33,725 bases of DNA from NCBI GenBank assembly GCA_964449185.1, contig CAYUYN010000001.1, forward strand, positions 13,212 to 46,936. The letters are read 5' to 3'. The first letter of the stretch is position 1. The number at the start of each line of letters is the position of its first letter. Below the pieces are notes generated by a model. The model did no database searches, had not been told where the DNA came from, and saw nothing but the letters and a program-made list of their open reading frames with translations. This DNA is from an uncultured Anaerolineales bacterium (lineage in GTDB: Bacteria > Chloroflexota > Anaerolineae > Anaerolineales > UBA6663). Shown piece by piece: positions 16,381 through 31,973 of this stretch. Made by a program: the position numbers and the translations under genes.

Positions 16381-16461
16381 GTTGAGACCTCCCTAATCGG
16401 CCAAGCGTCCGGGTTTACGAGGTGCTCTGGCCGTTCACCCCGCAACACTGGTAAGATCTAG

Positions 16462-16668
16462 TTAATCGCTGTTGGCCACAGCCGCGCCTGGCTGGCCGTG
16501 GTCGCGCCCGCGAGGTGGAGTGTGGCGACCATATCCTGGCGCTGCAGCAATGGCTGGCTGGAGCGGGGGCTCGGGATTGAAGACAACCAGGCCAGCGACC
16601 TCCGCGATGCCGTCCAGCATGGACGAATATTGGCTGGGTAGCTGGCGTGCGAACCAGATGCGATACAT
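16462..16668 (-). pseudogene. Possible N-terminal remnant of a 2-hydroxyacid-dehydrogenase-like gene (very tentative)
   Basis: The 68-aa ORF reads MYRIWFARQLPSQYSSMLDGIAEVAGLVVFNPE.. It loosely resembles the N-terminal substrate-domain pattern M..I...R.LP.....L....EV. Continuing the similarity needs a frame change. No ribosome site was seen. Confidence 0.25.
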
Positions 16669-16755
16669 GGGCTCAGATCCACTCTGAACCCAGCCGACGA
16701 GTGCTGGCGGGCGCCGTCCCAGCGCCCTTATGCCTACTGCGAGACGTGTTCAGTC

Positions 16756-17505
16756 CTAGGTACCGTTCTGGCTTTGAGACCGCTGCGCGCCGTCGAGCAT
16801 GCGTACGCGCCCTTCGATGCCGTGCCAGTGCTGCGCCATCGCCGCCTGCAGCTCCGCAACGTCGCGGGCCTTAAGCGATGCCACGATTTCAACGTGGCGC
16901 TGATATGTGGCGGAGGGGTTGGCGGGCTCGGGCATCGCCACGCGTGCCTGGGCCTCGCGGTAAATGGCCCAGAAAACATCCAGAATCTTGCTCAGGACGC
17001 TGTTGCCAACGTTTTCGTACAGTAGTTGGTGAAATTCCTGGTCGTAATCCGCGACGTAACGACCTTGTTCCGCCACCGCGCGCATGCGTTCCAGCACGCT
17101 CTCCAGCCGCCGAATCTGATCATCCGTCACCACTTCCACAACCCGGTCCGCCATGCCATACTCGATGCGGTGGCGCACCTCCAGGATGTCGATAAGCTGT
17201 TTCAGGTCGAACTGCATGCCGTAGGCCAGATTGTCGAGAATAGAGTCAAACGAGAAGGCGCGCACGAAAAGGCCCGCCCCGGCGCGCGCCTCCAAGATTC
17301 CAACCGCCTCCAGGGCTTTGACGGCTTCCCTGAGCGAGTTGCGGCTGATGTTCAGTTGCTGAGCCAGCTCTGCTTCAGCGGGCAAGGGGTCCCCGGACTT
17401 CAACGAGTTTCCGACAATATAGGCTTTAATTTCTTCCTGGGCGGTTTGATGCAGCAACTGCTTGCGCTTGACTGCTTGGAGAGAGTGGACGGGTTTGATG
17501 GTCAT
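16756..17505 (-). CDS. GntR-family transcriptional regulator, FadR subfamily (winged HTH plus FCD domain)
   Basis: The start at the ATG at 17505 gives MTIKPVHS... The HTH reads LPAEAELAQQLNISRNSLREAVKALEAVGILEARAGAGLFV. The all-helical C-terminal domain is typical of FCD. It sits at the pivot between the divergent operons. Confidence 0.88.
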   Translation of the reverse strand: MTIKPVHSLQAVKRKQLLHQTAQEEIKAYIVGNSLKSGDPLPAEAELAQQLNISRNSLREAVKALEAVGILEARAGAGLFVRAFSFDSILDNLAYGMQFDLKQLIDILEVRHRIEYGMADRVVEVVTDDQIRRLESVLERMRAVAEQGRYVADYDQEFHQLLYENVGNSVLSKILDVFWAIYREAQARVAMPEPANPSATYQRHVEIVASLKARDVAELQAAMAQHWHGIEGRVRMLDGAQRSQSQNGT

Positions 17506-17612
17506 GACTAGTACCAAACGAACCGCATAGCGTGTTGCCGGTTGCGTCTTAGAGTCCTGGGCAGGCACTAAACAGCGTTAGGTTGGTGAGAAAGATGCAT
17601 CCGATTCAAGCT

Positions 17613-17641
17613 AAGATATCCCATATTAGGATATTTGTCAA
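17613..17641 (-). promoter_or_regulatory. Candidate sigma-70-type promoter directed leftward (gntR and possibly the minus-strand array)
   Basis: On the minus strand, TTGACA is the complement of 17636-17641. A 17-nt spacer follows, then TATCTT (complement of 17613-17618). It lies in the only AT-rich stretch of the window. Confidence 0.45.
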
Positions 17642-17648
17642 TTGACAA
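17635..17648. promoter_or_regulatory. Perfect 14-bp palindrome TTGTCAATTGACAA (candidate GntR/FadR operator overlapping both -35 boxes)
   Basis: This is a perfect inverted repeat. It fits the generic GntR-family operator form (GT-Nx-AC). It is built from two abutting, back-to-back TTGACA hexamers. Confidence 0.55.
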
Positions 17649-17671
17649 GGCGTGATGTCATAGGATATCAT
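17642..17671 (+). promoter_or_regulatory. Candidate sigma-70-type promoter directed rightward (P450 operon)
   Basis: TTGACA lies at 17642-17647. An 18-nt spacer follows, then TATCAT at 17666-17671 (5 of 6 matches to TATAAT). It is ~70 nt upstream of the P450 start. Confidence 0.5.
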
Positions 17672-17742
17672 ATATCTAATAACACAACAACACAAATTTT
17701 TCAAAATCGATGGTCTTTTACGGTGACGAGAGAGGCCAGATC

Positions 17743-18984
17743 ATGGTCCAGCCAGGCCACATCACGCACGACCCGTACGCAATCGGCAGCCGCGCCATGC
17801 TGCTCAACCCGTACCAGGTTTATCAACAGCTGCGGACTGAAGCGCCTGTCTACTGGTCCGAAGCGTGGAACGGCTGGGTCCTTACCCGCTACAAAGACGT
17901 TCAGGCCGTCTTGGGCGACGAACGCTTCTCCTCCGCGCGGACGTCGTCCGTGCTGAGCCAGCTGTCCGAGACCCAACGAGCCCAGCTGCCGGACCTCGAC
18001 CAATACATGTCGCTTTGGATTGGTTTCATCGACAAGCCCGAACACACGCGGCTGCGCGCCATTGCCGCCCAGGCGCTGGCGCCGCGCTTGTTCGAAGCCA
18101 TGCGGCCGCGCATCCAGGCGGTCACCGACCGCCTCATTGATCAAGTGCGGGCCAGCGGCCAACTGGACGCTATTGGGGATTTGGCCTACCGGCTGCCAGC
18201 GACCGTCATCGCCGACCTGATCGGCATTCCAGAAGAGCACCGTGCCCGTTTCAAAGCTTGTTCCGACCAGTTCGTGGCCTTTGCCGGACCCAGCCGCGTT
18301 GACTTCGAAAAGGCCCGCCAGGCTCAGGACGGCCTGCGGGCGATTATCGAAATTTTGCGGCCGGTCTACGCCGAGCGGTGCCGGGCGCCGCAAGCCGACA
18401 TCATGAGCGTTTTGATGCAGTGCGAGGTGAATGGCGGCTTGCTGAACGAGATGGAGGTGCTGATCCTGTGCACAGCGCTGGCCATTGGCGGGCACGAAAC
18501 CACCACCAACCTGATCGGGAACGGTCTACTGGCGCTTCTGCGCCACCCGGACCAGTTGGAAAAGCTGAGGTCTCAGCCGGAATTGATTGTGACGGCGGTG
18601 GAGGAATTACTGCGCTTCGAACCGCCGCTGCAGCGCGTCCTGCGAACCGCCAACACCGACGTCGAATTTGGCGGGCAGCAGATCCGCCAGCGGCAGTTCG
18701 TGTTGGCCATGGTCGCCGCGGCCAACCGAGATCCGGAGATTTTTACCGATCCTGAGCGCCTGGACGTCGAGCGCCAAGAGAACCGCCATCTCAGCTTTGG
18801 GCAGGGCTCCCGCTTTTGCCTTGGGGCGCAACTGGCGCGCATCGAAGGCCAGGTCGCCATCAGCACGCTGCTGCGCCGTTTGCCGGGCCTACGGCTGACC
18901 GGCTCGGAAGCCAACTGGCATGAGAACATGGGCTTCCGCGGTCTCAAAACCCTGCCACTGGCTTTTAGTGCGACGCTTCAATAA
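17743..18984 (+). CDS. Cytochrome P450 monooxygenase
   Basis: It has the heme-thiolate loop FGQGSRFCLGAQLA, the EELLR (ExxR) motif and the I-helix AIGGHETT. I prefer the ATG at 17743, with GAGAGAGG upstream. The ATG at 17710 is an alternative start. Confidence 0.92.
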   Translation: MVQPGHITHDPYAIGSRAMLLNPYQVYQQLRTEAPVYWSEAWNGWVLTRYKDVQAVLGDERFSSARTSSVLSQLSETQRAQLPDLDQYMSLWIGFIDKPEHTRLRAIAAQALAPRLFEAMRPRIQAVTDRLIDQVRASGQLDAIGDLAYRLPATVIADLIGIPEEHRARFKACSDQFVAFAGPSRVDFEKARQAQDGLRAIIEILRPVYAERCRAPQADIMSVLMQCEVNGGLLNEMEVLILCTALAIGGHETTTNLIGNGLLALLRHPDQLEKLRSQPELIVTAVEELLRFEPPLQRVLRTANTDVEFGGQQIRQRQFVLAMVAAANRDPEIFTDPERLDVERQENRHLSFGQGSRFCLGAQLARIEGQVAISTLLRRLPGLRLTGSEANWHENMGFRGLKTLPLAFSATLQ

Positions 18985-19017
18985 CGGCATTCATTTTTCA
19001 GCCCAGTAAGGTGACTC

Positions 19018-19779
19018 GTGCAAACTAACATAACCAAGGCCAAACTAAAGGCGGGCGAAACGGTGTTTGGCTGCTTCGTGCGCTACCCGGACGCCAGCCT
19101 GGCCGAAGTGCTGGCCTACTCGCCGTGGGACTTCCTGGTGTTCGACGGTGAACACGGGACGCTCGAGCCGCGCGACTGTGAGAACATGGTGCGCGCCGCC
19201 GAGCTGCGCGGCGTGACCCCCATCGTGCGCGTTACGACCAACCAGCCGTCGGTCATCCTGCGCCTGATGGATACGGGTGCCGGCGGCCTGCACGTGCCAT
19301 GGGTTAACTCCGCCGCCGAAGCCGAGGCCGTTGTCCGCTCGGTGAAGTATCATCCGCGGGGCATGCGCGGTCTGGCCGGCGTCCGCGCCGCCAACTACGG
19401 GCAGACTATTTCCTTTGGTGAGTATGTGGAGCAGGCCAATCGTGAGACTCTGGTGGTCATTCACATAGAAACGGCCGAAGCCGTCGATTGCTTGCCGGAA
19501 ATCGCGGCGACCGATGGCGTCGACGTGATTTTCATCGGGCCCACCGATCTTTCGCAATCATATGGCGTGCCTGGCCAGCCGCAGCATCCCCTGGTCCAGT
19601 CCGCCATCGACCGCATTGTCGACGTGGTGGCCCAGTCGAACGCGGCCCTCGGCATCATGGTGGGCAACGCCCAGGCCGCGCGCCATTGGCGAGAGCGCGG
19701 TGCGCGCTACATTACGATTGGGTTGGAATCAATCCTCATGCCCGCCATGCGTGATTACCTGACAGCCGCGCGGGCCTGA
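19018..19779 (+). CDS. HpcH/HpaI family aldolase, paralogue 2
   Basis: 253 aa with a GTG start. Family motifs are DFLVFDGEHG, VRVTTNQP, GAGGLHVPWV and IETAEAVDCLPEI. Confidence 0.85.
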   Translation: MQTNITKAKLKAGETVFGCFVRYPDASLAEVLAYSPWDFLVFDGEHGTLEPRDCENMVRAAELRGVTPIVRVTTNQPSVILRLMDTGAGGLHVPWVNSAAEAEAVVRSVKYHPRGMRGLAGVRAANYGQTISFGEYVEQANRETLVVIHIETAEAVDCLPEIAATDGVDVIFIGPTDLSQSYGVPGQPQHPLVQSAIDRIVDVVAQSNAALGIMVGNAQAARHWRERGARYITIGLESILMPAMRDYLTAARA

Positions 19780-19825
19780 CGCGGTTTGACAGCGGAGAGC
19801 GCCAAGCGCGAAGGGATCAGTCGCA

Positions 19826-21244
19826 ATGGAAATGTACCTCAATGGCCAATGGAGACAGTCGGCGGAGCGCATGCCTATCAGCTCGCCCTACACGGGTGAA
19901 ATAGTTGACACCGTACCCGTGGCTGACGCCGACGATGTGGAGCAGGCGCTGGCGGCGGCCGTGGAAGGGGCGGCGGCGATGGCGCGACTGACCGCCTACG
20001 AGCGTACTCAGATCCTGCACCGCGCGGCTGACCTCCTGGCGGCCAAGGTGGAAGACATTGCCCAGACCATCAGCCGCGAACAGGGTAAGCCGATTACCGA
20101 AGCGCGCGGCGAAGCCAGCCGCACGCCGGACTTTCTGCGCCTGTGCGCCTTTGAAGGCGCGCAATTGCGCGGTGAAACCCTGCCGCTCGATGCGCACGTG
20201 GGCACCAAGGGCAAGCTCGGCTTTACGCTGCGCCAGCCGTGCGGCGTCGTCCTGGCCATTACGCCGTTCAACTATCCGCTGCTGTTGGTGCTGCACAAGG
20301 TTGGCCCGGCCCTGGGCGCCGGCAACGCGGTGATCCTTAAGCCCGCCAATACCACGCCCCTGACGGCGCTAAAACTCACCCAGATCTTCTTGGAAGCGGG
20401 TCTGCCTGCCAATGGGCTGCAGTGCCTCACCGGCTCCGGGGCCTTCTTGGGGCCGCTCTTGTGCGCCGATGCGCGCGTGCGCAAGATCACGTTTACGGGC
20501 AGCACCGAGGTAGGGGAGCAGATTACGCGGGTGGCCGGTGTGAAGAAGCTTTCGCTGGAGCTGGGCTCGAACGCCCCCCTGATTGTGCTGCCCGATGCCG
20601 ACCTGGACGCGGTGGCGGCCGCGACTGCCATTGGCGGGTACGTCAATGCCGGGCAGGTCTGCATTTCAACCCAGCGCGTGCTCGTGCAGCAGCGGGTGTA
20701 TGCCGATTTCATCGACGCGCTCAAGCCGCGGGTGGAAGCCATCCAGGTGGGCGACCCGCTGGCAGCGGGCACGCAGCTCAGCGCCATGATCAGTGAGACC
20801 GAGGCCCAACGCGTGGAAGCCTGGATAAACGAAGCAGTGCTGGCGGGCGCCCGCGTGGTGACCGGCGGGCAGCGGCACGGCGCGGTCTTTGCCCCGACTA
20901 TCGTGGCGGACGTCAAGCCATCCATGCGGATTTCGCGCGATGAGATTTTTGGCCCCGCCGTCGCCGTCACGCCGGTGGACAGCCTGGACGACGCGCTGCA
21001 GCACGCCAACGACAGCCGCTATGGCTTGAGCGCCGGCATCTTCACGCGCAACATCGCCGACGCCATGCGCTTTGCGCGAGAAGCCGAGTCCGGCAACGTC
21101 CACATCAACTGGACCCCCCTCTGGCGCGCCGACTTTATGCCCTACGGGGGCTTCAAGGGCAGCGGCATCGGCAAAGAGGGCCCGCGCTACGCCGTTGAAG
21201 AGATGACCGAGCTGAAGACGGTGGTGATTCACGGGCTGGCGTAG
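19826..21244 (+). CDS. NAD(P)+-dependent aldehyde dehydrogenase (lactaldehyde/semialdehyde dehydrogenase-like)
   Basis: 472 aa. It has LELGSNAP (the catalytic Glu region), the catalytic Cys in NAGQVCISTQR, ITFTGST and PFNYP motifs. Confidence 0.9.
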   Translation: MEMYLNGQWRQSAERMPISSPYTGEIVDTVPVADADDVEQALAAAVEGAAAMARLTAYERTQILHRAADLLAAKVEDIAQTISREQGKPITEARGEASRTPDFLRLCAFEGAQLRGETLPLDAHVGTKGKLGFTLRQPCGVVLAITPFNYPLLLVLHKVGPALGAGNAVILKPANTTPLTALKLTQIFLEAGLPANGLQCLTGSGAFLGPLLCADARVRKITFTGSTEVGEQITRVAGVKKLSLELGSNAPLIVLPDADLDAVAAATAIGGYVNAGQVCISTQRVLVQQRVYADFIDALKPRVEAIQVGDPLAAGTQLSAMISETEAQRVEAWINEAVLAGARVVTGGQRHGAVFAPTIVADVKPSMRISRDEIFGPAVAVTPVDSLDDALQHANDSRYGLSAGIFTRNIADAMRFAREAESGNVHINWTPLWRADFMPYGGFKGSGIGKEGPRYAVEEMTELKTVVIHGLA

Positions 21245-21257
21245 AAACGAGGCGCAC

Positions 21258-22049
21258 ATGCGGGGCAATCGGGTCAAACAAAAGCTGCAGGCCGGCCAGG
21301 TGGCCACCGTCGTCGGCGGGTCGATTACCACGCCCGACATCATCGACTTCATGGGGCCGCTAGGCTTCGACGGTTTTTGGCTCGAAGGCGAGCATGGCCC
21401 GGTCGATTGGGGCGCCATTGGCGATCTGTCGCGCGCCTGTGATCTCTGGAATATGGCTTCCATCATGCGGGTGCAAGCTAACGAGCCCGGCCTGATCACG
21501 CGCACGATCGATCGCGGCGTGAGTGGTCTCGTGGTGCCGCACGTGAACACCCGCGCCGAGGCCGAGCGGGTGGTGCAGGCCGCCCGCTTTCATCCGCAGG
21601 GCAAGCGGGGCATTTATCCCAGCCGGCGCTTCTACGGCGACCCCAAGTATTTTGAGACGGCCAACGACGAAGTCCTGGTCGTCATCTTGATCGAGGAAGT
21701 TGAGGCCGTCGAGAACCTGGCTGAAATCCTGAAGGTCGAGCACATCGACGTATTCTTTGTCGCTCCGGGAGATCTGTCCCAATCCATGGGCCTGCCGATG
21801 CAGATGGACCACCCCGACGTGGTTGCGGTCGTCGGGTCCGCCATCCAGCAGATTGTGGCGGCGGGCCGCGTGGCGGGCGCGCTGGCTTTTGACCACAATC
21901 TGGACCGGTATTTGAGCTTGGGCGCTCGTTTCCTGTTCACGGTCTTTGATGCGTGGATCGCCGCCGGTGCCGTGGCCTACCTGGAGCGCCTAGCCGCGCT
22001 GCAGCGGGTTGAGCCCAACGAGGGGCCGGCCGCGTCCCAGCCTGGCTGA
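21258..22049 (+). CDS. HpcH/HpaI family aldolase, paralogue 3
   Basis: 263 aa. Family motifs are DGFWLEGEHGP, MRVQANEP, GVSGLVVPHV and IEEVEAVENLAEI. It starts 13 nt after the ALDH stop. Confidence 0.85.
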   Translation: MRGNRVKQKLQAGQVATVVGGSITTPDIIDFMGPLGFDGFWLEGEHGPVDWGAIGDLSRACDLWNMASIMRVQANEPGLITRTIDRGVSGLVVPHVNTRAEAERVVQAARFHPQGKRGIYPSRRFYGDPKYFETANDEVLVVILIEEVEAVENLAEILKVEHIDVFFVAPGDLSQSMGLPMQMDHPDVVAVVGSAIQQIVAAGRVAGALAFDHNLDRYLSLGARFLFTVFDAWIAAGAVAYLERLAALQRVEPNEGPAASQPG

Positions 22050-22100
22050 CTGGCAGGGTCTTGATACAGCGTATCTGCCAACCGAAAGGAACACCGGAAG

Positions 22101-23996
22101 ATGTCTGCTTCGTCCAAATCGACCCACCTCCGCCTGACGATGGCCCAAGCGCTGGTGAAGTACCTCCAGGTACAGTACAGCGAGCGGGACGGCCAACAAC
22201 GCCGCCTGATTCCCGCGGTCTTCGGCATTTTCGGGCATGGCAACGTCGCCGGATTGGGGCAGGCGCTTTTTGAATACGGGCAGGACCTGCCTTACTTTCA
22301 ACCCTGCAATGAGCAGTCGATGGTGCATACCGCCATTGGGTTCGCCAAGGCCAATCTGCGCACCGCCACCCTGGCCTGCGCCGCCTCCATTGGCCCGGGG
22401 TCGACCAACATGCTCACCGGGGCCGCCACGGCGACTGTCAATCGACTCCCCGTTTTGCTGCTGCCCGCCGATTACTACGCCACGCGCCACCAGGGACCGG
22501 TGCTACAGCAGATCGAGCATCCCGTCTCGGCCGACGTGAGCGTCAACGACGCTTTTCGGCCGCTCAGCCGCTTCTTCGACCGCCTGACCCGCCCGGAGCA
22601 TCTGTTGACCGCTCTGCCGGAGGCCATGCGGGTCCTGACGGACCCGGTCGAGACAGGCGCCGTGACCCTATCGCTGCCGCAAGATATTCAGGCGCACGCC
22701 TACGATTACCCGGCCCACTTCTTTGAGAAACGCGTGTGGCGCATCGAGCGGCGGTTGCCCGATCCGCAGCGGATCGAGGAGGCGGTGGCCTGGCTGAGGG
22801 CGGCCAAGCGTCCCGCCATCATCGCCGGGGGCGGCGTCCACTATGCGCAGGCCTGGGACGAGCTGGAGCAGTTGGCCAACGTCTGCGGCATTCCCGTGGG
22901 CGAGACGATGGCCGGCAAGGGCTCGCTGCGGCATGCCTCGCCGCTGCTGCTCGGCGGATTTGGCGTTACCGGCAACCCGGCCGCCGGCCGGATCATCAGC
23001 CAGGCGGACCTCGTCATCGGCATTGGCACCCGCCTCACAGATTTCTCGACAGGCTCGATGTCGGCCTTTCAGCACCCGGACGTTAAGTTCCTTAACCTGA
23101 ACATTGTCGGGCACGACGCCTACAAGATGGGCGCGCTCCCCATTGTGGCCGATGCGCGCGAAAGCCTGCGGGCGCTGCTGGCCGCGGCCCAGGCCGCGGG
23201 CCTCGGTCCCGATGCCACTTACGTGCGTGAAATCGAAGAGGCCAACGCGGCCTGGGCCGCGCAGCTGCGCGCCGAAGTGTCCGTGCCGAAACAGGGCGAG
23301 ATTATGAACCAGGGCCAGTTGATCGGCATGATCAATGCCCAGGCGCAAGCCGGCGACACGATTGTCGCCGCTGCCGGCGGGTCGCCCGGCGATCTGCACG
23401 AGATTTGGGACGCGACCGGCGGACGCAACTGCCACCTTGAGTTTGGCTTCTCCTGCATGGGTTATGAGATCCCGGCTGGTTTGGGCGTGCGGCTGGCGCA
23501 GCCCACCGGTGAGGTCTATGTGCTCATTGGCGACGGCACGTACCTGATGAACCCCACGGAGCTGGTGACCGCTCTGCAGGAAAGGCTCAAGATCATCGTG
23601 GTCATCTCGCAAAACCATGGCTATCAAGTGATCCGGCGCCTCCAGATGGCCCGTGCGGGCCGCAGTTTTGGTACCGAGTTCCGCGAGCGTGACGCCGCCT
23701 CCAATCGCCTGGAAGGTGCTTATCTGCCGATCGATTTGGTCAAGAACGCCGAAAGCATGGGCGCGAAAACCTGGCATGCATTCACACCCGACGAGGTGCG
23801 CCAGGCGCTGCAGGAGGCGCGGGGCGAGACCGGCGCCTGTGTTATTGTGGCCGAGACCGAAAAGCATCGCTATTTGCCGGGGGGCGGCATCTGGTGGGAC
23901 GTGGCCTCGGCGGAGGTATCGGGCGACGGTGTGACACAAGAGCTGCGGGCGGCCTACGAGGAAGAACGCCAGCGTCTGCAGCGTCTGTACTACTGA
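22101..23996 (+). CDS. iolD: 3D-(3,5/4)-trihydroxycyclohexane-1,2-dione acylhydrolase (ThDP-dependent, decyclizing)
   Basis: 631 aa. The N-terminus LRLTMAQALVKYLQVQY...IFGHGNVAGLGQAL...NEQSMVHTAIGFAK...GPGSTNMLTGAATATVNRLPVLLLPADYYATRHQGPVLQQIEH runs collinear with my recollection of Bacillus subtilis IolD (LTTAQALIKFL..IFGHGNV.G.GQAL..NEQGMAH.A..PADTFATRQPDPVLQQ.E). A ThDP GDG motif (LIGDGTYLMN) is present. Confidence 0.9.
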   Translation: MSASSKSTHLRLTMAQALVKYLQVQYSERDGQQRRLIPAVFGIFGHGNVAGLGQALFEYGQDLPYFQPCNEQSMVHTAIGFAKANLRTATLACAASIGPGSTNMLTGAATATVNRLPVLLLPADYYATRHQGPVLQQIEHPVSADVSVNDAFRPLSRFFDRLTRPEHLLTALPEAMRVLTDPVETGAVTLSLPQDIQAHAYDYPAHFFEKRVWRIERRLPDPQRIEEAVAWLRAAKRPAIIAGGGVHYAQAWDELEQLANVCGIPVGETMAGKGSLRHASPLLLGGFGVTGNPAAGRIISQADLVIGIGTRLTDFSTGSMSAFQHPDVKFLNLNIVGHDAYKMGALPIVADARESLRALLAAAQAAGLGPDATYVREIEEANAAWAAQLRAEVSVPKQGEIMNQGQLIGMINAQAQAGDTIVAAAGGSPGDLHEIWDATGGRNCHLEFGFSCMGYEIPAGLGVRLAQPTGEVYVLIGDGTYLMNPTELVTALQERLKIIVVISQNHGYQVIRRLQMARAGRSFGTEFRERDAASNRLEGAYLPIDLVKNAESMGAKTWHAFTPDEVRQALQEARGETGACVIVAETEKHRYLPGGGIWWDVASAEVSGDGVTQELRAAYEEERQRLQRLYY

Positions 23997-24104
23997 TTGC
24001 CCTGGCTCTGTGATGCAGGAGTGCCGGCGCCTCGATCCGGCACCGGCACCCATTGTCTACAACCTGGCTCGGCCCAAGTTTCCACCCATGCGAGGAGTCT
24101 CACG

Positions 24105-24989
24105 ATGAATGTTACCGTCGGCAGCGCGCCGGACAACTGGGGAGTCTGGTTTCCGAGCGACCCGGAACAAACGCCCTGGAATCGGTTCCTGGATGAGCTG
24201 TGCGAGGCGGGCTTTGAGTGGACAGAGCTGGGGCCATACGGTTATTTACCGACCGACACTTCTGTCCTGCGCCAGGAGCTAAGCCAGCGTGGGATTAAGG
24301 TGACAGGCACCTTTGCTATGGCTGACCTGGCGGATCCGGCCCAATGGCAGGCGCTGGAGCGGCAAGTCCTGGGGGCTGGCGAAGTGCTGGCCGCCCTGGG
24401 CGCCAAGTTCTTAGTGCTCATTGACGGCATCTACACCAATGTGTTTACCGGGGAGTTTCTCACTGCAGCGGAGCTGAACGAAAGCGGTTGGAAGCGGCTG
24501 ATTGAAACGACTCACAAGGTGGCCGACATCGCGCAGAGCCGTTTTGGCCTGCAGACCGTCTTCCACCCGCATGCTGAGACGCACGTCGAGTACGAGGCGC
24601 AAATCGAGCGCTTCTTGGCCGACACGGAGCCGCACATCAAACTGTGTCTGGACACCGGGCACCACGTTTATCGCGGCGGCGACGCCGTGCGCTTCATGCG
24701 CAAGCATCATGCGCGGATACCCTATCTGCACATCAAAAGTGTCGATCCGGTGGTGCGGGCCAAGGTGCAGGAGGCGCGCATCCCCTTTGGCGTCGCCGTG
24801 GGCCAGGATATGTTCTGCGAGCTCTCACGCGGCGCGGTCGATTTTGCTGCTTTCCGCGACGTCTTGCAGGACATCAATTATCAAGGCTGGGCCATTGTCG
24901 AACAAGACATGTACCCGGCGCCGTTTGACAAGCCACTGCCGATCGCGCGTCGCAACCGGCAATATCTGCGGGAGATTGGCATTGGCTAG
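24105..24989 (+). CDS. Xylose-isomerase-like TIM-barrel protein (sugar phosphate isomerase/epimerase family; IolE/MocC-like)
   Basis: The start at the ATG at 24105 has GAGGAG upstream. MNVTVGSAPDNWGVWF...[11 protein letters not shown]...HPHAETHVEY...EQD are typical of AP-endonuclease-2/xylose-isomerase-like barrels. It is a paralogue of 29908-30792. The exact activity (dehydratase versus isomerase) is not assignable. Confidence 0.8.
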   Translation: MNVTVGSAPDNWGVWFPSDPEQTPWNRFLDELCEAGFEWTELGPYGYLPTDTSVLRQELSQRGIKVTGTFAMADLADPAQWQALERQVLGAGEVLAALGAKFLVLIDGIYTNVFTGEFLTAAELNESGWKRLIETTHKVADIAQSRFGLQTVFHPHAETHVEYEAQIERFLADTEPHIKLCLDTGHHVYRGGDAVRFMRKHHARIPYLHIKSVDPVVRAKVQEARIPFGVAVGQDMFCELSRGAVDFAAFRDVLQDINYQGWAIVEQDMYPAPFDKPLPIARRNRQYLREIGIG

Positions 24990-25184
24990 TCTCCCTGCCG
25001 ACTGTCGCCCGCGACGCCGTCTGCCTCCGCAGTCATTGACCCGCTCACCCATTACCCTTTGGCCGGTGTGGCGTTGAGGCCATAGGGCGATGGTTCGCTG
25101 CCAGCCCGACGCCGCGGCCCTGCTCGGCTGCGGCCAGACACCACTGCGTGGGCTACAAAACTCATGGCGAGGACCTAATCCTTC

Positions 25185-26048
25185 ATGGAAACAGTGCTGC
25201 ACTCCAAGTCAAAGACGGTGGTGATCAGTCCCGAACAGCCCTTTGTGATGATCGGCGAGCGGATCAATCCCTCGGGCCGCAAGAAATTGGGCGCCGAAAT
25301 GGCGGCAGGGGATTACAGCCGCGTGCGCCGCGATGCCGAAATCCAGGTGGCGGCCGGCGCCCATGTCCTGGACGTCAATGCCGGATATCCTTTGGGAGAT
25401 GAAGCGGCCATGCTTGTGGAAGCCATTCACGTCGTCAGCGCGGTGACCGATGTGCCCTTGTGCATTGACTCCTCGTTGGTGGAGGCGCTGGAGGTGGCCC
25501 TGGCCGCCTACCAGGGCAAGGCGCTGGTAAACTCGGTGACGTGTGAAGATGAACGGCTAGAACGTATCCTGCCGCTGGTTAAGAAGTACGGCGCGGCCGT
25601 CATAGGGATGGCCAACGATGAGACGAGCATCTCTAACGACCCGGTTGAACGCCTGGCCGTCGCGCGCCGGCTCGTCCAGCGGGCGAGTGACTTCGGTATT
25701 CCAGCTGAGGACGTTGTCATCGATCCACTCTGCTTGACCGTAGCCGCCGATACACAGGCGGCCCTCATCACGTTCACCAGCATGCGCTTGATCCGCGATG
25801 AGCTGGGCGTGAATATGGTCTGCGGGGCCAGCAACGTCTCATTCGGTCTCCCGGAACGTTCGGCCATCAATGCCGCTTTCCTGTCCGTGGCCATGGCCTG
25901 CGGTTTGACCTGTGCCATCACCGATGCCACGAATGCGGTGATCAAGCAGGCGGTGCTGGCCAGTGATGTTCTGTATGGCAAGGACGACTACGCGGCCAAC
26001 TGGATTGCCCATTATCGCCAGGCCAAGCGGAACGAAGCGCATACGTGA
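25185..26048 (+). CDS. Pterin-binding methyltransferase (methyltetrahydrofolate:corrinoid / methylcorrinoid:THF methyltransferase, MeTr/AcsE/CmuB-like)
   Basis: 287 aa. FVMIGERINPSGRKKL...AGAHVLDVNAG...PLCIDSS...ALVNSV...GASNVSFGLP matches the dihydropteroate-synthase-like pterin-binding barrel of MeTr and the MetH Hcy-distal domain. Confidence 0.88.
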   Translation: METVLHSKSKTVVISPEQPFVMIGERINPSGRKKLGAEMAAGDYSRVRRDAEIQVAAGAHVLDVNAGYPLGDEAAMLVEAIHVVSAVTDVPLCIDSSLVEALEVALAAYQGKALVNSVTCEDERLERILPLVKKYGAAVIGMANDETSISNDPVERLAVARRLVQRASDFGIPAEDVVIDPLCLTVAADTQAALITFTSMRLIRDELGVNMVCGASNVSFGLPERSAINAAFLSVAMACGLTCAITDATNAVIKQAVLASDVLYGKDDYAANWIAHYRQAKRNEAHT

Positions 26049-27949
26049 AGCATCTCATCACCTTTCTGCCTCAGGCGCTGCTGACCCACGCTCCGTCAGG
26101 CACGACTGTATTCAATGCCGCCAACTGGGCCGGTTTGGCTATTGATAGCACCTGCGGCGGCCGGGGCACATGCGGCAAGTGCAAAGTGCAAATGCTGGAG
26201 GGCGCGCAGGCCGTGACGGAAGCCGATCTGCGCTATCTGTCTGAAACCGAGATGGCCGAGGGCTGGCGCCTGTCTTGTCGGGCAGCTATCCACGGTGAGT
26301 GCGTGGTGACTGTCCCGCGTATGCAGACCGCGCCCAAGGCGGCCCTGCTGGGTTACGGCCGGCATGTGGCGATCGATCCAAACGTGACCAAAGTTTATCT
26401 CGAGCTCGCGGAGCCTGGGCTCGAGGATCAGCGCTCAGATGTAAGGCGTGTCACCCAAGCCCTGGGCGTGGAGGGCTACGAGGCACGCGTCGTTCCCTCG
26501 GTCTGGAGAGCGTTGCCCAAGCTGCTGCGCGCGCATGACTTTGCCATTACCGCGGTGGTGTGCGGGAACGAGCTCATCGCCGTTGAGGCGGGTGATACCA
26601 CGGCCCACAGCTACGGTCTGGCGCTCGACGTCGGTACGACGACAGTGGTGGGGGCCATTGTCAACCTGAATACCGGGGCGGTGGCCGCCGTCCAATCGAC
26701 CCTCAATGGCCAGGCCATCTTTGGGGCGGATGTCATCTCGCGCATCAGCTATGCCATGCTGGAGCCCAACGGCCTGGCGGAGCTGCAAACCCGCATTGTG
26801 ACGACCATCAGCGGCCTGATCGACCAACTCTTGGCGTCTTCGGGCGTGCAGCGCGAGCTCGTGTACGAGGTGGTCGCGGTTGGCAACGCCACGATGCTCC
26901 ATCTGCTGCTGGGAATCGATCCCGAGCCCATCGGCGTGGGTCCTTTTATACCGGCGATTGAAGACAGTGTCACCTTGCCCGCCGCTGAGCTCGGTCTCAA
27001 GCTTCATCCGGAGGCGCGGCTGTCGACCCTGCCCCATTTGGGCGCTTACGTGGGCGCCGACATCGTGGCAGGCATCCTGGCCACGGGCCTGGCCCGCAGC
27101 CAGGACGGCCGGCTGCGCCTGTATATCGACGTGGGGACCAACGGTGAAATCGTCCTGGGCTCGACCAGGCACGGCAATCTGGCGACCGCCGCCCCGGCCG
27201 GGCCGGCCTTCGAAGGCGCCCAGATCGCCTGCGGCATGCGCGCCAGCACCGGGGCAATCGAAGGCGTGGTCATCACCGCCGACGTGGAGCTGCAGATCAT
27301 CGGCGGTGACGTGCGTCCGCTCGGTTTATGCGGTTCTGGCCTGGTGGACGCGGTCGCCGAGCTCATCCAGTGCGGCCTGGTGGACAAATCAGGCCGTTTG
27401 TTGACCCCGGCGCAGGCGCTGGGGCGAGGTGTGCCTGAGGCCCTGATTGCTCGTCTCGTAGAGATCAAAGGCGTGCGTGCCTTCCGGCTTAGCGGGCTCG
27501 AGGACAACATTGTGCTTACGCAGCCGGATATACGCGCGCTGCAGTTTGCCAAGGCCGCGATTGCCGCCGGGGCCAGTGTTCTGCTCGCCCGGCTGGGGGT
27601 GACGGCTGCCGACCTGCACGAGGTGCTGTTGGCCGGGTCGTTTGGCTCCTACATCAATCCGGCCAGCGCCCGCCTGATCGGCCTGGTGCCCTGGCTCGCG
27701 GTCGACCGCATCATCGCGGTGGGCAACACGGCCGGAGAGGGCGCTAAGATGGCGCTGTTGTCGTTTCGCGAGCGCGAAGCCGCCCAGCGCATCCCCGATT
27801 TCGTCGAGTACCTTGAACTGTCGGGGCGCCCCGAGTTTACTGATATTTTCACCGAGGCCCTCGCCTTTCCCACGCCGCCAGACCAACAGACGGAGGCCGC
27901 GCCAACGCCGGACGCCCACGCCACCGGCGCCCAGGGCCGGCCGCATTAA
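26045..27949 (+). CDS. RACo-type reductive activator of corrinoid enzymes (N-terminal [2Fe-2S] ferredoxin plus ASKHA/DUF4445 ATPase)
   Basis: 634 aa. It has the plant-type ferredoxin Cys motif DSTCGGRGTCGKCKV...LSCRA, followed by a long ASKHA-like region (LDVGTTTVVG, IDVGTNGEIVLG, GPAFEGA). The GTG start overlaps the methyltransferase stop (GTGA). Confidence 0.85.
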   Translation: MKHLITFLPQALLTHAPSGTTVFNAANWAGLAIDSTCGGRGTCGKCKVQMLEGAQAVTEADLRYLSETEMAEGWRLSCRAAIHGECVVTVPRMQTAPKAALLGYGRHVAIDPNVTKVYLELAEPGLEDQRSDVRRVTQALGVEGYEARVVPSVWRALPKLLRAHDFAITAVVCGNELIAVEAGDTTAHSYGLALDVGTTTVVGAIVNLNTGAVAAVQSTLNGQAIFGADVISRISYAMLEPNGLAELQTRIVTTISGLIDQLLASSGVQRELVYEVVAVGNATMLHLLLGIDPEPIGVGPFIPAIEDSVTLPAAELGLKLHPEARLSTLPHLGAYVGADIVAGILATGLARSQDGRLRLYIDVGTNGEIVLGSTRHGNLATAAPAGPAFEGAQIACGMRASTGAIEGVVITADVELQIIGGDVRPLGLCGSGLVDAVAELIQCGLVDKSGRLLTPAQALGRGVPEALIARLVEIKGVRAFRLSGLEDNIVLTQPDIRALQFAKAAIAAGASVLLARLGVTAADLHEVLLAGSFGSYINPASARLIGLVPWLAVDRIIAVGNTAGEGAKMALLSFREREAAQRIPDFVEYLELSGRPEFTDIFTEALAFPTPPDQQTEAAPTPDAHATGAQGRPH

Positions 27950-28370
27950 GCGACGCGATAGAGGGGCGGCAGACCCTGAGCCGGCCGGTTGGCGTTCTCG
28001 ACGCAGGCCAGGCCGCGCTTACGAGCTGTTCCCCGGGTCACGCCCGCCATGTGAGGGGGGCACAGCACATTGTCCATGCCCAGCAGCGGATGAGCCGGGT
28101 TGAGCGGCTCGCTCTCGAAGACGTCCAGACCCGCGCCACGGATCCAGCCCAACTGTAGCGCTTCGACCAAGGCCGCCTCGTCGACGCTCGCGCGTGCCCA
28201 TCGCCCCACCGGGGTCAATGACCAAGTCCACGCCTTTGAACTGGCCGGCCAGCGGCTGCTCGGGGGCTAGAAATTGCAGGGGATATTCGCCTTCCACGGC
28301 GGCTAGAAACTCGTCGGTCCAGACGTTCGGCGAAGGTGGGCGCTGATTGAGATAGAGTATTTTCAGGCGG
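27946..28370 (-). pseudogene. D-2-hydroxyacid dehydrogenase remnant: N-terminal and C-terminal pieces joined, NAD-binding core missing, frameshifted
   Basis: One frame reads LKILYLNQRPPSPNVWTDEFLAAVEGEYPLQFLAPEQPLAGQFKGVDLVIDPGG, an N-terminal domain. After a frame change it reads RASVDEAALVEALQLGWIRGAGLDVFESEPL..HPLLGMDNVLCPPHMAG, the C-terminal catalytic His region. No GxGxxG Rossmann segment lies between them. Confidence 0.6.
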
Positions 28371-28397
28371 CCTGTGTTGGTCTGGCAGCCGGGCGTC

Positions 28398-28619: not shown

Positions 28620-28628
28620 CGCTGCCGC

Positions 28629-29813
28629 CTATGGGTGTGCCATTTGCAGCGAGCGCACCGCTTCCCACTGGCCACTGTCCCACGAGCGCTGCATGGCGGC
28701 CTGCACTTCCGCCACCGCCAGGGCCTCGCGAAAGCCGGGCGCGTTCTGGACTCCCTCGGCCACCGATTTCAGGAACTGGTAGGCCTCGATGGCCTTAAGG
28801 TCATCGTAGCCGATGCCAATGCCCGGGCCTGGGTTGAAATGGCCGTGGAACGGGTGAGCGGGCCCGCCAAAGAGGGTGGCATAGCCTTCGTGCACCGCGT
28901 CGCCACCGGGTACGTAGACTTTTAGCTCATTGAGCCGCTCGAAGTTCCAGCCCAGGGCGCCCGCGGTGCCGTTCAGCTCGAAGGCCATCTCGCACTTCGG
29001 TCCGAAGATTGCCCGGCAGACCTCGAGCGATCCTTGGGCGCCGTTCTCAAACTGCACCAGCGCGCCAACATAGTCTTCGTTGGTGACGTCCCCGAGTGGG
29101 TCACCGGGTTGGCCCAACGAGAAGTGGGTGCCCCGGCCCGGAACGGGCAGCGGTCGTTTTTGGATAAAGGTGTGCTGGTTGCTCACCAGGCGCTTAATCG
29201 GGCCAGCCAACAGGGAGGCCATATCGATCACGTGCGACATGATGTCACCCAGCGTGCCCAGCCCAGCCAGCGAGCGATCGAAGCGCCAGGTCAGTTGGCC
29301 TTGGGGATGGCTGCCGTACATAGCGAAGAAGCGGCCACGATAGTGCGTGAGCGTGCCCACGCGGCCGCTGCGAATGAGCTGGAGGGCATACTGCACCATC
29401 GGCGCCCAGCGGTAGTTGTAGCCGACAAAGCTCAAAACGCCGGCCTCGCGTGCCAGCGCCTCGATCAGCGCGGTCTCCTGCGGCGAGCGGCCGACTGGCT
29501 TCTCGCAGAAAATGTGCTTCTTGGCATCCGCGGCCGCCCGGACCATCTCGACGTGCAGGTGGTTGGGTGAGGCAATGTTCACAACCTCGACAGCGGGATG
29601 GGCCATGACAGCGCGCCAATCGGTGGAGCAGGTTTCGAACCCAAACATCTCCTGCGCCGATTGCGCGCGCTCCGCGACCTCATCCGCGCAGATGACCAGG
29701 CGCGGCCAGATATTATCGGCGTGGAAGCGGTCGCGCATCTGGCGGTAGGCGCGGCTGTGCACCATGCCCATCCAGCCCATACCGATCACCCCAATGCCGA
29801 CGGTCCGTCTCAT
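28629..29813 (-). CDS. Gfo/Idh/MocA family oxidoreductase
   Basis: The start at the ATG at 29813 has AGGAAAGGA upstream. It has [23 protein letters not shown] and the EKP motif (IFCEKPVGR). Confidence 0.88.
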
Positions 29814-29907
29814 AGCAAGCATCCTTTCCTGATGGGGCCATGCCATTGCGTCGCTGCGGCGGCGCGTTGTTGTGATAACTGTTGCGAAGCCTGCCGACTG
29901 GCCCGCC

Positions 29908-30792
29908 TCATCCCAGTCCTAGCTCGCGCAGATAGGCTCGCGTGCGGCGGGCGATGGGCAGCGGCTTATCGAACGGCGTGGGGAACAAGTCCTGCTCCAC
30001 TACCGCCCAGCCCCTGAAGTCAATTTCGCGCAGCAAATCGCGCAGCTTTGGAAAATTGATCGTGCCGAGGGCCGGCTCGGTGAACAGGCCCATGCCCACG
30101 GCCGCGTGGAGGGAGGCGCCCGCGGCCTGGGCCTGGCGGTGGACTGCGGCATCGATGCTCTTCAAATGCAGGTAGGGGATGCGCGGGTGATGCCGGCGCA
30201 CGAACTCCACCGGGTCGGTGCCCCGATAAGCAAACCACCCAGTGTCGAGGCACAGCGACACGCGGGCCGGATCCGTGCGCTGCAGCAGCTCCTCCAGTTG
30301 ATCCTCATACTCAATGAAGGATTCGGCATGGTTGTGGAAGAGCAGGGTCAAGTCGTAGTGCTCGCGCACCAGGTCGGCCGCCCGGTGTGTGTTCTTGACC
30401 ACGCACGCCCAGCCATCTTTATCCAGGCGCAGCGGACCAATCAGCTTGCCGTTCGCATCGGCATACGGCTCCGCGATCAGCACAATGTATTGCGCGCCCA
30501 GGGCGGCCAGCAGCGCGCCTGTAGCGTGCAGCCGCTGTTCGAGCTCCGGCCAGCCGCCGGCGGCTTCGAGCCTGCCAAAGACAAACGTCGCGGACACCCG
30601 CAGGCCGCGGCGATCCAGTTCGGCGCGCAGGACGGGCAGCTCTGTCGGCAAGTAGCCGTACGGCCCCAGCTCGATCCATTGGTAGCCGGCCTCGGCGGCC
30701 TCATCCAAGAATTGCGTCCACGGCGGCTGGCGCGGATCATCCGCGAACCAGACGCCCCAGGAGTCCGGCGCTGTACCAATCTTGACGTCCAT
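29908..30792 (-). CDS. Xylose-isomerase-like TIM-barrel protein (IolE/MocC-like), paralogue of 24105-24989
   Basis: The start at the ATG at 30792 has GGAGGAG upstream. [16 protein letters not shown]...[11 protein letters not shown]...[29 protein letters not shown]. It has the same 294-aa length and shares its termini with the plus-strand paralogue. Confidence 0.82.
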
Positions 30793-30797
30793 GGTGA

Positions 30798-31973
30798 TCA
30801 CTCCTCCGCCGCTGCCAGTTCTGGCAGCTTTAAAAGCCGGGCGGCATTGCCGCCCAAGATGAGGGCCTTTTCCCTGGGCGACAGGAAGTCGCAGTGGCTG
30901 CGAATGAAGGCAAGCGCCTGGCGGTAGGTGCACCAGTTGCCGCCCGAATAGGGCATATCAGTGCCCCATAACAGCTTTTCGGCGCCCACGCCGTCCCGCA
31001 GCTGCTTGAGCATGGCCTGCCCCCCCGGAAAGGGATACTCGGGCCACTTGGCCTGCATCAGGACTTCAGCGTACGTATTGGGGCGCTCGAGCAGCCGCCA
31101 CACCCCATCCGGGATGCCGATCTCGTGGATGATGGCTGCCGGCACCAGGCCGTGCGTCATCACCGTCGCAAGGTCGGGATGCACCTCAGCCCAGCGCTCC
31201 AGCTCGGCCACGCGCTGCAGAAAGCCGGCCGTCCGGTCGCGCCTGCGGGCGTCCAGGTACCACCACACGGAAATCCCCAGGTCGCCGACGAGCTTCCACA
31301 GCGGCTTGAAGCGCGCGTCGTCGATGTGATCGACGTACCCGCGCAGCGCAAAGAGCTCCACGCTGAAGTACAGACCTCGGCAGCCATATTCTCGGACGGC
31401 GTGCTCGAGGCGCTTGAGCTGCTCAGGCTGGTCGGCGTCGGTCTCGCGGATCTGTGCCAGCCCGATGAAGCGCCCTGGGTAGCGCTGCATGGCCTGGGCG
31501 TAATACTGGTCGATGTTCACCCCATAGACGTGGTCGCTCTGCAGCACGCCCATGTCTACGCCGGCCACGTTCATTTCGGCGATCATCCTTTCGGGCGTCG
31601 CCTCCAGGCTCTCCAGGCCGGGGGGGTAGAGCTGAACGTAGTAGTCCTCGCCATCGATGGTGAACTCGGCCTGGCCGTAGCGGCCCATGCGAAAGTTCAC
31701 GTCGGGCATGTCGTGGAGGCTGTCCGAGGGGTAGTCAAGCAGCCGTTGGTTCATGCGGGCCCCGTCACGCCTGCGCCAGATCTCGGTGAAATCGCGCAGG
31801 TGGTACTGCCACAACTGCATGGTCAGCCGGGCGCTCTCTGGTCCAGAGCCGGTGCCGAACCGCGGAAAAATGTGGAAGTGCGCGTCGATGATCTGGGTGC
31901 GCTGGGCGGCCGGCGGCTCGTCTGCGAACCGCCACCCACCGCCGAAAAACTGCATAGGAAGTTGGTCACTCAA
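30798..31973 (-). CDS. Amidohydrolase-2 family protein (larger variant)
   Basis: 391 aa. It has the IIDAHFHIFP metal-binding start and a LLWGTDMPY C-terminal motif. The TTG start at 31973 has AGGAG 8 nt upstream. Confidence 0.8.
   Translation of the reverse strand: MSDQLPMQFFGGGWRFADEPPAAQRTQIIDAHFHIFPRFGTGSGPESARLTMQLWQYHLRDFTEIWRRRDGARMNQRLLDYPSDSLHDMPDVNFRMGRYGQAEFTIDGEDYYVQLYPPGLESLEATPERMIAEMNVAGVDMGVLQSDHVYGVNIDQYYAQAMQRYPGRFIGLAQIRETDADQPEQLKRLEHAVREYGCRGLYFSVELFALRGYVDHIDDARFKPLWKLVGDLGISVWWYLDARRRDRTAGFLQRVAELERWAEVHPDLATVMTHGLVPAAIIHEIGIPDGVWRLLERPNTYAEVLMQAKWPEYPFPGGQAMLKQLRDGVGAEKLLWGTDMPYSGGNWCTYRQALAFIRSHCDFLSPREKALILGGNAARLLKLPELAAAEE

Follow-up and report, generated by a model that had tools for sequence, protein, structure and literature searches.

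What becomes of the product of IolD when its gene lies among aldehyde dehydrogenase (ALDH) and HpcH-type aldolase genes, apart from iolB and iolC? This question is raised by positions 19018-24989 of a 33,725-nucleotide stretch of DNA (the window) from an uncultured Anaerolineales bacterium. The window is C1:13212-46936 of a metagenome-assembled genome (MAG; GCA_964449185.1) of 671 contigs, 91% complete with 4.3% contamination; C1 (CAYUYN010000001.1) is a 47-kb contig. A sequence-only reading of this DNA had proposed a non-phosphorylative variant of inositol breakdown. Our analysis makes it an even chance that 5-deoxyglucuronate, the IolD product, has two fates in this genome, the canonical one and an oxidative, kinase-free one. 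In the clade to which the window IolD belongs, a lower branch that uses ALDH and HpcH aldolases probably exists, judging from gene neighbourhoods and genome content.

Genes were called with Pfam and NCBIfam profiles at curated cut-offs (scores are given in bits, where applicable as score vs cut-off), and iolB, iolC and IolJ were sought by family searches over the whole genome. The core of the locus consists of five genes:

19018..19779, + strand: HpcH_b, class II metal-dependent pyruvate-type aldolase (PF03328, 123.5 bits)
19826..21244, + strand: NAD(P)+-dependent ALDH resembling succinate-semialdehyde dehydrogenase (SSADH) (PF00171, 525.6 bits, full length)
21258..22049, + strand: HpcH_c, second class II aldolase (PF03328, 100.8 bits)
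22101..23996, + strand: IolD, thiamine diphosphate (ThDP)-dependent 3D-(3,5/4)-trihydroxycyclohexane-1,2-dione hydrolase (TIGR04377, 833.1 bits vs 715)
24105..24989, + strand: TIM_a, IolE-like dehydratase with a xylose-isomerase-like TIM-barrel fold (PF01261, 94.7 bits; TIGR04379, 162.3 vs 290)

The order HpcH, ALDH, HpcH, IolD, IolE-like barrel is that given by the sequence-only reading, and its confident assignment of iolD held. The match to TIGR04377 covers residues 11-625, the domains TPP_enzyme_N, _M and _C were all found, and a GDG...N ThDP motif begins at residue 477. This is the only match above the IolD cut-off in the genome. Because iolB and iolC are present on another contig, C120, the window protein is very probably, from its sequence, a genuine IolD whose product goes to IolB and IolC. 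The TIM_a open reading frame (ORF) opens at 23997; the likely true start is the ATG at 24105. The best matches of TIM_a in the PDB are the IolE entries 9zmu and 3cny. The IolE cut-off (TIGR04379, 290) was not reached by TIM_a (162.3), by a paralogue in the window, TIM_b (154.4), or by the copy on C120 (228).

A scan with one genome per species returned 79 IolD loci, and a tree was built from the 79 sequences, canonical Halomonas-group enzymes included. Sixty-six of them, the window IolD included, form a clade that splits off from canonical IolD with 99% support. Clade members were 55-82% identical to the window protein, the remaining sequences 41-53%. The closest relatives were from Anaerolineales and other Chloroflexota MAGs. 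Chloroflexota, Planctomycetota, Acidobacteriota, Latescibacterota, Actinomycetota, Verrucomicrobiota, Poribacteria and other phyla are intermixed within the clade, suggesting that window-type IolD spread horizontally.

To survey the partners of IolD, all ORFs within 10 kb of it were clustered for the 66 clade loci. Canonical loci carry homologues of IolB, IolC, IolE and IolG, whereas clade loci are mostly without them. The most frequent partner in the clade was a barrel of the TIM_a/TIM_b type (47/66 loci, median 49 bp after IolD). HpcH aldolase was found in 17 loci spanning at least seven phyla, ALDH in 16 (median 69 bp before IolD), a dehydrogenase of the type of Gfo_b, encoded farther right in the window, in 15 (directly before IolD), and D-2-hydroxyacid dehydrogenase in 10.

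The same difference was seen at the level of genomes. In the 47 whole clade genomes, IolB exceeded its cut-off in 10 and IolC in 9, largely the same genomes; 36 had neither, and all three canonical control genomes had both. Six of the assemblies without IolB and IolC are at chromosome level (the genomes of L041, L044, L045, L052, L063 and L106). The 139 genes nearest to IolD in 25 dereplicated genomes without IolB and IolC were tallied by Pfam family: TIM barrels were counted 14 times, ALDH 8, 2-hydroxyacid dehydrogenase, HpcH, Gfo and MFS 4 each, and MR_MLE 3; no PfkB kinase, KduI or fructose-bisphosphate aldolase (FBA) was among them. An ATP-free end to inositol breakdown that has so far gone undescribed is therefore likely in this IolD clade.

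The clearest link between IolD and its partners comes from the ALDH. In a search of 50 whole genomes, all 13 orthologues with at least 67% identity lay beside IolD or within about 2 kb of it; a separate paralogue group (55-62% identity) is located away from IolD. Individual gene orders agree with the counts. In L021, which has an IolD with 80% identity to that of the window, the order is HpcH, 2-hydroxyacid dehydrogenase, luciferase-like monooxygenase (LLM), ALDH, IolD. L055 and L100 show short-chain dehydrogenase/reductase (SDR), ALDH, IolD, HpcH, and L062 has the same core with TIM_a upstream. L040 reads GntR, SDR, IolD, TIM_a, HpcH, 2-hydroxyacid dehydrogenase. In L041, a complete chromosome without IolB and IolC, IolD is preceded by 2-hydroxyacid dehydrogenase and an ABC-2 transporter and followed by TIM_a, an IolG-like gene, an HpcH_b orthologue (71% identity) and DUF3500. 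The ALDH-IolD-TIM core recurs in the closest relatives, indicating that the gene order in the window is not due to chance.

The ALDH was below every NCBIfam cut-off (lactaldehyde dehydrogenase, 502 vs 650; SSADH, 386 vs 646; methylmalonate-semialdehyde dehydrogenase (MMSDH), 251.1 vs 448.5). Its sequence contains GQVC and LELGSNAP motifs, and we take it to be catalytically intact. Its substrate may be 5-deoxyglucuronate, which is the role that we propose, or alternatively malonate semialdehyde.

HpcH_b is closest to HpaI and GarL, below the cut-offs for HpaI (192.4 vs 368.8), GarL (173.4 vs 406.75) and RhmA (128.9 vs 441); the corresponding scores of HpcH_c, also below these cut-offs, were 145.1, 134.5 and 115.7. 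In an alignment, HpaI residues H45, R70, E149 and D175 are kept in both aldolases, and at the position of Q147 HpcH_b has His and HpcH_c has Leu. HpaI and GarL, the nearest characterised relatives of both proteins, cleave dicarboxylic 4-hydroxy-2-oxo acids, substrates that fit the oxidative scheme proposed below. Orthologues of HpcH_b (70-81% identity) adjoin IolD in L021, L028, L032 and L041. HpcH_c sits exactly between ALDH and IolD, a place where the relatives have a median of 69 bp. The window encodes a third aldolase of this class in a leftward operon:

5759..6526, - strand: HpcH_a, third class II aldolase (PF03328, 137.8 bits)

An orthologue of HpcH_a (72% identity) adjoins IolD in L028.

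In the mechanism that we propose, TIM_a would form the cyclohexane-1,2-dione and IolD would open it to the aldehyde-acid 5-deoxy-D-glucuronate. One part of this product may enter the classical route through the isomerase IolB and the kinase IolC encoded on C120. Another part may be oxidised by the SSADH-like ALDH to 5-deoxyglucarate, the start of a route for which no kinase would be needed. A 2-oxo group could then be introduced by a D-2-hydroxyacid dehydrogenase or a PanE-type enzyme, giving 3,4-dihydroxy-2-oxoadipate, or by an acid-sugar dehydratase, giving 4-hydroxy-2-oxoadipate. An HpcH class II aldolase would split the 2-oxo acid, releasing malonate semialdehyde and either hydroxypyruvate or pyruvate. 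Four points of this scheme are inferred from sequence: which substrate the ALDH takes, in what order the steps occur, what the aldolase cleaves and whether the oxidative branch is active in the organism. The alternative order, which is that of the sequence-only reading and in which the aldolase would act first and the ALDH would then oxidise malonate semialdehyde, is not favoured over that with ALDH first.

The first oxidation of the cyclitol is a likely role, on the basis of gene context, for a dehydrogenase in the right-hand part of the window. That part converges on the IolD operon and contains two further barrels:

28629..29846, - strand: Gfo_b, Gfo/Idh/MocA dehydrogenase (PF01408 and C-terminal domains)
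29908..30933, - strand: TIM_b, paralogue of TIM_a with 47% identity (PF01261; TIGR04379, 154 vs 290)
32856-33725: third TIM barrel

The order in this operon is Gfo_b, TIM_b, Amidohydro_2, SDR, third TIM barrel. Gfo_b was below the cut-offs of the levoglucosan dehydrogenase model (326 vs 650) and of IolG (101 vs 355); orthologues of it (49-66% identity) immediately precede IolD in 14 other loci. The sequence-only reading had counted three barrels of the IolE/IolI/MocC type in the window, and all three (24105-24989, 29908-30933 and 32856-33725) were found. Its count of three intact Gfo/Idh/MocA genes has to be lowered to two, Gfo_b and a second gene, with a remnant besides:

3951-4967: intact Gfo/Idh/MocA gene
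28398-28619, - strand: Gfo/Idh/MocA remnant of 73 codons, beside a 2-hydroxyacid dehydrogenase remnant between the convergent operons

The lack of IolB, IolC and IolJ in the window, as stated by the sequence-only reading, was borne out: family searches found no IolB-, IolC-, class II FBA- or DUF2090-like gene anywhere on C1. Elsewhere in the genome the outcome was mixed. A whole-genome profile search located iolB (318.8 vs 205) and iolC (390.5 vs 300) side by side on C120, so that the assumed absence of these two genes from the genome did not stand, while IolJ and DUF2090 were not found in the 91%-complete assembly. The sequence-only reading had named a standard iolBCJ set elsewhere in the genome as a refutation of its idea, and this is fulfilled in part. 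C120 has the order LacI regulator, iolB, iolC, Gfo gene, TIM barrel, 261-aa ThDP-enzyme fragment, IolE-like gene (228 vs 290), iolG (461.6 vs 355), contig end. The IolC of C120 is a single domain of 324 aa. No iolD was found on C120. The only class II FBA-like gene, a divergent one (58 bits, 486 aa), is on C15, and four DeoC/LacD-family genes were found elsewhere in the genome. No protein exceeded the cut-off for MMSDH-type IolA (TIGR01722, 448.5) in the genome; the best match was the window ALDH (251.1). The classical route is incomplete in the assembly.

Contamination was considered as the origin of iolB and iolC and rejected. C1 and C120 both lie within the bulk of the bin in tetranucleotide composition, and the related Chloroflexota genomes G001, G002, G006 and G019 show the same split, with an iolB-iolC-IolE-like cluster that lacks iolD. 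In G001, G002 and G006 the window-type enzyme, encoded elsewhere, is the only IolD. Two further candidates were rejected. A KduI/IolB-like match on C5 (169 bits) as a second IolB lies among GH141 and fucosidase genes and resembles uronate metabolism. The ThDP fragment of C120 as a second IolD is more similar to ALS (179 vs 96 bits). This N-terminal fragment (L017:7179-7964) lies between the TIM barrel and the IolE-like gene, roughly where iolD would be expected. Locus L054 (G019:C1:8333127-8343869) contains two window-type IolD copies, both 71% identical to that of the window and no more than 10 kb apart. Orthologous ALDH (77%) and HpcH_b (79%) genes are nearby, and this 10.4-Mb Ardenticatenaceae genome also has iolB and iolC.

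We defined a kinase-free IolD module by neighbourhood as a window-clade IolD with a TIM_a-type barrel and an adjacent orthologous ALDH, HpcH or D-2-hydroxyacid dehydrogenase. The window has ALDH, two HpcH genes and TIM_a adjacent to IolD, and 2-hydroxyacid dehydrogenase in decayed form only. When the absence of IolB and IolC is required as well, the present genome falls outside it, both genes being on C120. The non-phosphorylative variant of the sequence-only reading is partly supported: 36 of the 47 clade genomes lack IolB and IolC and ALDH and HpcH recur around IolD, but the genome from which the idea arose has iolB and iolC.

Several observations weigh against the oxidative branch. Because iolB and iolC are present, that branch is not needed to explain IolD in this genome. 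ALDH, HpcH and D-2-hydroxyacid dehydrogenase do recur around IolD orthologues, but at least one of these was within 10 kb of IolD in 8 of the 10 genomes with IolB and IolC and in only 14 of the 36 without, a comparison confounded by relatedness. Being more common where IolB and IolC occur, the partners are not simple replacements for them. HpcH_b orthologues with at least 62% identity were found in 12 genomes, near IolD in 3 or 4 and away from it in 8, and no close orthologue of HpcH_c was found near IolD in relatives (best, 48% identity). All three D-2-hydroxyacid dehydrogenase genes of the island have decayed to their 3′ ends, and no acid-sugar dehydratase here is orthologous to those next to IolD elsewhere. 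Another island, on contig C6 (about 1-20000), carries paralogues of P450 (two), HpcH (two) and D-2-hydroxyacid dehydrogenase (at least four) with no IolD. Finally, in nine Latescibacterota-type loci IolD is accompanied by Gfo_b and TIM_a, with neither ALDH nor HpcH in the vicinity. These loci imply that at least one further fate for the IolD product must exist.

The three D-2-hydroxyacid dehydrogenase remnants are as follows:

1296-1541, + strand: D-2-hydroxyacid dehydrogenase 3′ remnant
16383..16568, - strand: D-2-hydroxyacid dehydrogenase 3′ remnant with an in-frame stop (tblastn)
27952..28185, - strand: D-2-hydroxyacid dehydrogenase 3′ remnant (tblastn; residues ~240-320 of IolD-linked homologues, up to 58% identity)

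The second matches the C-terminal ~60 residues of the 2-hydroxyacid dehydrogenases from L040, L054, L028 and L030 with 51-63% identity, and the third lacks the Rossmann core. The remnants differ and are not copies of one another. Intact D-2-hydroxyacid dehydrogenase paralogues were found on C6. Two MR/MLE (enolase-superfamily) genes on C1 were tried as the missing dehydratase and rejected (only ~30% identity to IolD-adjacent MR/MLE genes elsewhere). The 608-aa genes downstream of HpcH in Terriglobia loci, at first taken for IlvD/Edd dehydratases, are ALDH-like. The contexts of HpcH_b orthologues away from IolD had almost nothing in common with the window.

Other gene associations were observed around IolD and IolB in the clade. 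A DUF3500 gene (Pfam) lies a few kb downstream of IolD in L041 (14798-15877). The nine Latescibacterota-type loci (e.g. L060:15841-16926) share a conserved ORF cluster at about +4 kb that looks like the DUF3500 family and whose neighbours are PhyH-like, Amidohydro_2-like, RmlC-like cupin and Nramp-type genes. In L025 (13594-15587) and L113 (7058-9034), two Chloroflexota genomes, a transaldolase-like gene (TAL_FSA, 362 aa; 62% identity between the two) adjoins IolB in the place of the kinase. From this arrangement, IolB with the transaldolase-like protein is a second candidate for a kinase-free ending. It was rejected for the window's genome, which has no close homologue (best, 24% identity).

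The strongest alternative is that only the classical route operates: IolD would feed the IolB and IolC of C120, the ALDH would replace IolA by acting on malonate semialdehyde, and the HpcH proteins would belong to another pathway, linked to the P450 or to other 2-oxo acids, that merely shares the island. The presence of iolB and iolC with a single IolD is what this alternative predicts. An MMSDH-type IolA is lacking from the genome, where the closest match to MMSDH is the window ALDH (251 bits), and an SSADH-like enzyme would suit short omega-carboxy aldehydes. The grouping of P450, HpcH and 2-hydroxyacid dehydrogenase paralogues on C6 in the absence of IolD, and the frequent distance of HpcH_b orthologues from IolD, point the same way. 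However, ALDH-IolD pairs occur in seven genomes that lack IolB and IolC (G004, G020, G025, G035, G038, G039 and G044), where the classical route cannot make malonate semialdehyde. HpcH lies within 10 kb of IolD in 17 of the 66 loci and at least seven phyla, against a roughly estimated chance rate of a few percent, HpcH_c is inserted exactly between ALDH and IolD, and neither IolJ nor DUF2090 was found to finish the route. We regard the classical route alone as unlikely, though it keeps an appreciable share of the probability.

The second alternative concerns the genes that share the promoter of IolD and those that diverge from it:

17613..17671, strand not assigned: divergent promoter pair for the GntR gene and the rightward operon (sigma-70-like, 11/12 and 10/12, back to back)
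16756..17568, - strand: GntR/FCD-family regulator (Pfam GntR and FCD)
17710..18984, + strand: cytochrome P450, first gene of the operon (PF00067, 103.7 bits)
25185..27949, + strand: methyl-tetrahydrofolate (methyl-THF):corrinoid methyltransferase and RACo activase, distal end of the operon (NF005719, 311 vs 259; RACo domains)
25185-26048, + strand: methyl-THF:corrinoid methyltransferase (NF005719)
26045-27949, + strand: RACo activase (RACo domains)

The promoter pair contains the only sigma-70-like sites found within 16300-28700, and no terminator-like intergenic site was found from the P450 gene through the TIM barrel. On the + strand the order is P450, HpcH_b, ALDH, HpcH_c, IolD, TIM_a, methyl-THF:corrinoid methyltransferase, RACo. 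Region 19018-24989 is thus the promoter-proximal core of one predicted GntR-controlled operon. The GntR/FCD regulator likely controls both divergent operons; GntR homologues (48-55% identity) are near IolD in L030, L040, L047 and L054. Past the regulator gene, the divergent genes encode an MtaA/CmuA-type methyltransferase (15352-16380), a corrinoid protein, a luciferase-like monooxygenase and an Opp-type importer, followed by PhyH, the third HpcH, PIG-L, a Gfo/Idh/MocA dehydrogenase, Amidohydro_2, a PanE-like reductase and a flavin reductase. A four-part corrinoid methyl-transfer set (MtaA/CmuA-type methyltransferase, corrinoid protein, methyl-THF methyltransferase and RACo) spans both divergent operons, at 14501-16380 (-) and 25185-27949 (+). 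In L028, the closest relative, a 90%-identical orthologue of the MtaA/CmuA-type methyltransferase directly adjoins IolD (L028:8890-9912). The P450 paralogues on C6 (43-47% identity) lie together with HpcH and 2-hydroxyacid dehydrogenase paralogues. The island that contains IolD extends beyond the window on C1; upstream of it (C1:1-13200, L018) are a second Opp-type ABC importer, two luciferase-like monooxygenases, an SDR and two MR/MLE genes.

With such neighbours, the substrate of IolD, TIM_a and Gfo_b could be a modified cyclitol (an O-methyl-, deoxy- or amino-inositol) whose ring-opened product is not 5-deoxyglucuronate; ALDH and HpcH would process that product, and the corrinoid methyltransferase set and P450 would remove the modification. 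The P450, methyl-THF:corrinoid methyltransferase and RACo genes of the operon, the MtaA/CmuA-type methyltransferase and corrinoid protein genes of the divergent operon, and the 90%-identical orthologue beside IolD in L028 are in line with this possibility. TIM_a is not an IolE equivalog, Gfo_b is not an IolG equivalog, and where a genome has IolB and IolC, another IolE-like gene, different from TIM_a, adjoins them. Rieske genes occur with Amidohydro_2 genes near IolD in the two closest metagenomic relatives, L021 (13369-16182) and L025 (5808-7282), in L021 followed by an FA_desaturase gene. The Rieske and FA_desaturase genes presumably resemble MocE and MocD of rhizopine (O-methyl-inosamine) catabolism. 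On the other hand, IolD is well above its equivalog cut-off, IolB and IolC depend, in at least eight genomes, on a window-type IolD as the only enzyme available to them, and no transporter or binding protein in the region points to a specific cyclitol. The corrinoid O-demethylases known to us act on aryl methyl ethers only, which also counts against a modified substrate. We therefore consider a modified cyclitol improbable. Equally doubtful in our estimate is the more ambitious form of our own proposal, in which the operon would encode a complete, ATP-independent lower cyclitol branch, transcribed together with genes for a corrinoid/tetrahydrofolate demethylase and a P450; these two would remove the methyl groups of O-methyl-inositols such as pinitol.

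That the island is a mosaic of unrelated catabolic genes, joined by rearrangement in a paralogue-rich genome, is very unlikely: its remnants (three 2-hydroxyacid dehydrogenase 3′ ends and one Gfo remnant), its flanks of mixed content (PIG-L, PhyH, LLM, Opp-type importers) and the phylum-mixed IolD tree, which implies frequent transfer, would fit, but the genes are tightly packed behind one promoter, the ALDH orthologue group occurs only next to IolD, TIM_a is a near-constant neighbour of IolD, and partners of the same families are met again in distant phyla.

Of the polyols that plants contribute to soil and sediment, inositols and their methyl ethers rank among the most abundant. To our knowledge, the only well-studied IolD-based route in bacteria spends ATP at the kinase step. 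A kinase-free ending from IolD, if true, would alter the prediction of inositol use from genomes. One survey required three of iolB, iolC, iolD and iolE for a genome to be counted as an inositol user (PMC9430895). Under this rule clusters of the window type are invisible, and 36 of the 47 sampled genomes would be scored as non-utilisers. The ending would also provide a function for the ALDH orthologue group, as well as for genes of HpcH and 2-hydroxyacid dehydrogenase type whose annotation is generic at present. The window offers an example of a genome that may have both endings. If the demethylase and kinase-free readings were both true, the operon would provide the first example both of a cyclitol ether demethylated in a corrinoid-dependent way and of an IolD pathway with no need for a kinase. 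We found no description in the literature of 5-deoxyglucarate, of inositol-derived 4-hydroxy-2-oxoadipate, or of an ALDH/HpcH ending to an IolD pathway.

The canonical myo-inositol route of Bacillus subtilis runs IolG-IolE-IolD-IolB-IolC-IolJ-IolA (Yoshida et al. 2008, cited in PMC9007349). The window resembles it in having a dehydrogenase, a dehydratase and the ThDP hydrolase IolD, and its genome has iolB, iolC and iolG (C120). It differs in that iolD is apart from iolB and iolC and lies with ALDH, two HpcH, P450 and corrinoid methyltransferase genes; the dehydratase and dehydrogenase on the window side are not IolE and IolG equivalogs; and neither IolJ nor DUF2090 nor an MMSDH-type IolA was found. 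IolB and IolC are, moreover, missing from most genomes that have a window-clade IolD. DUF2090 was proposed as an alternative 2-deoxy-5-keto-gluconate-6-phosphate aldolase, present in an IolC-DUF2090 fusion (Price et al. 2022, PMC9007349). In that system, an aldolase other than IolJ completes the lower inositol pathway, and gaps at the aldolase step are common. However, it is phosphorylative, and the window's genome has no DUF2090 and a single-domain IolC.

The routes of GarL (2-dehydro-3-deoxyglucarate), RhmA/YfaU (2-keto-3-deoxy-L-rhamnonate) and HpaI (4-hydroxy-2-oxoheptanedioate) follow the logic proposed for the window, in which an aldehyde would be converted to an acid and then to a 2-oxo-4-hydroxy acid that a class II aldolase cleaves. 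Unlike in these routes, the window aldolases are below the equivalog cut-offs and no orthologous dehydratase is linked to them; the substrate proposed for the window, a deoxy-hexarate derived from an inositol ring, is described in no paper that we found. Rodionova et al. reportedly described in 2013 an alternative inositol pathway of Thermotoga maritima that does without IolB, IolC and IolJ and does not use IolD, whereas IolD is the centre of the window module. A distant relative of IolD (91.9 bits) is the Azoarcus cyclohexane-1,2-dione hydrolase (PDB 2pgn). This ThDP enzyme converts a cyclic 1,2-dione to an omega-oxo acid and then to a dicarboxylate (adipate). Ring cleavage followed by oxidation is also the succession that we propose for IolD and the ALDH, so that the comparison fits the scheme. 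In Azoarcus, cleavage and oxidation are carried out by one enzyme, whereas in our proposal a separate ALDH would oxidise the product after IolD.

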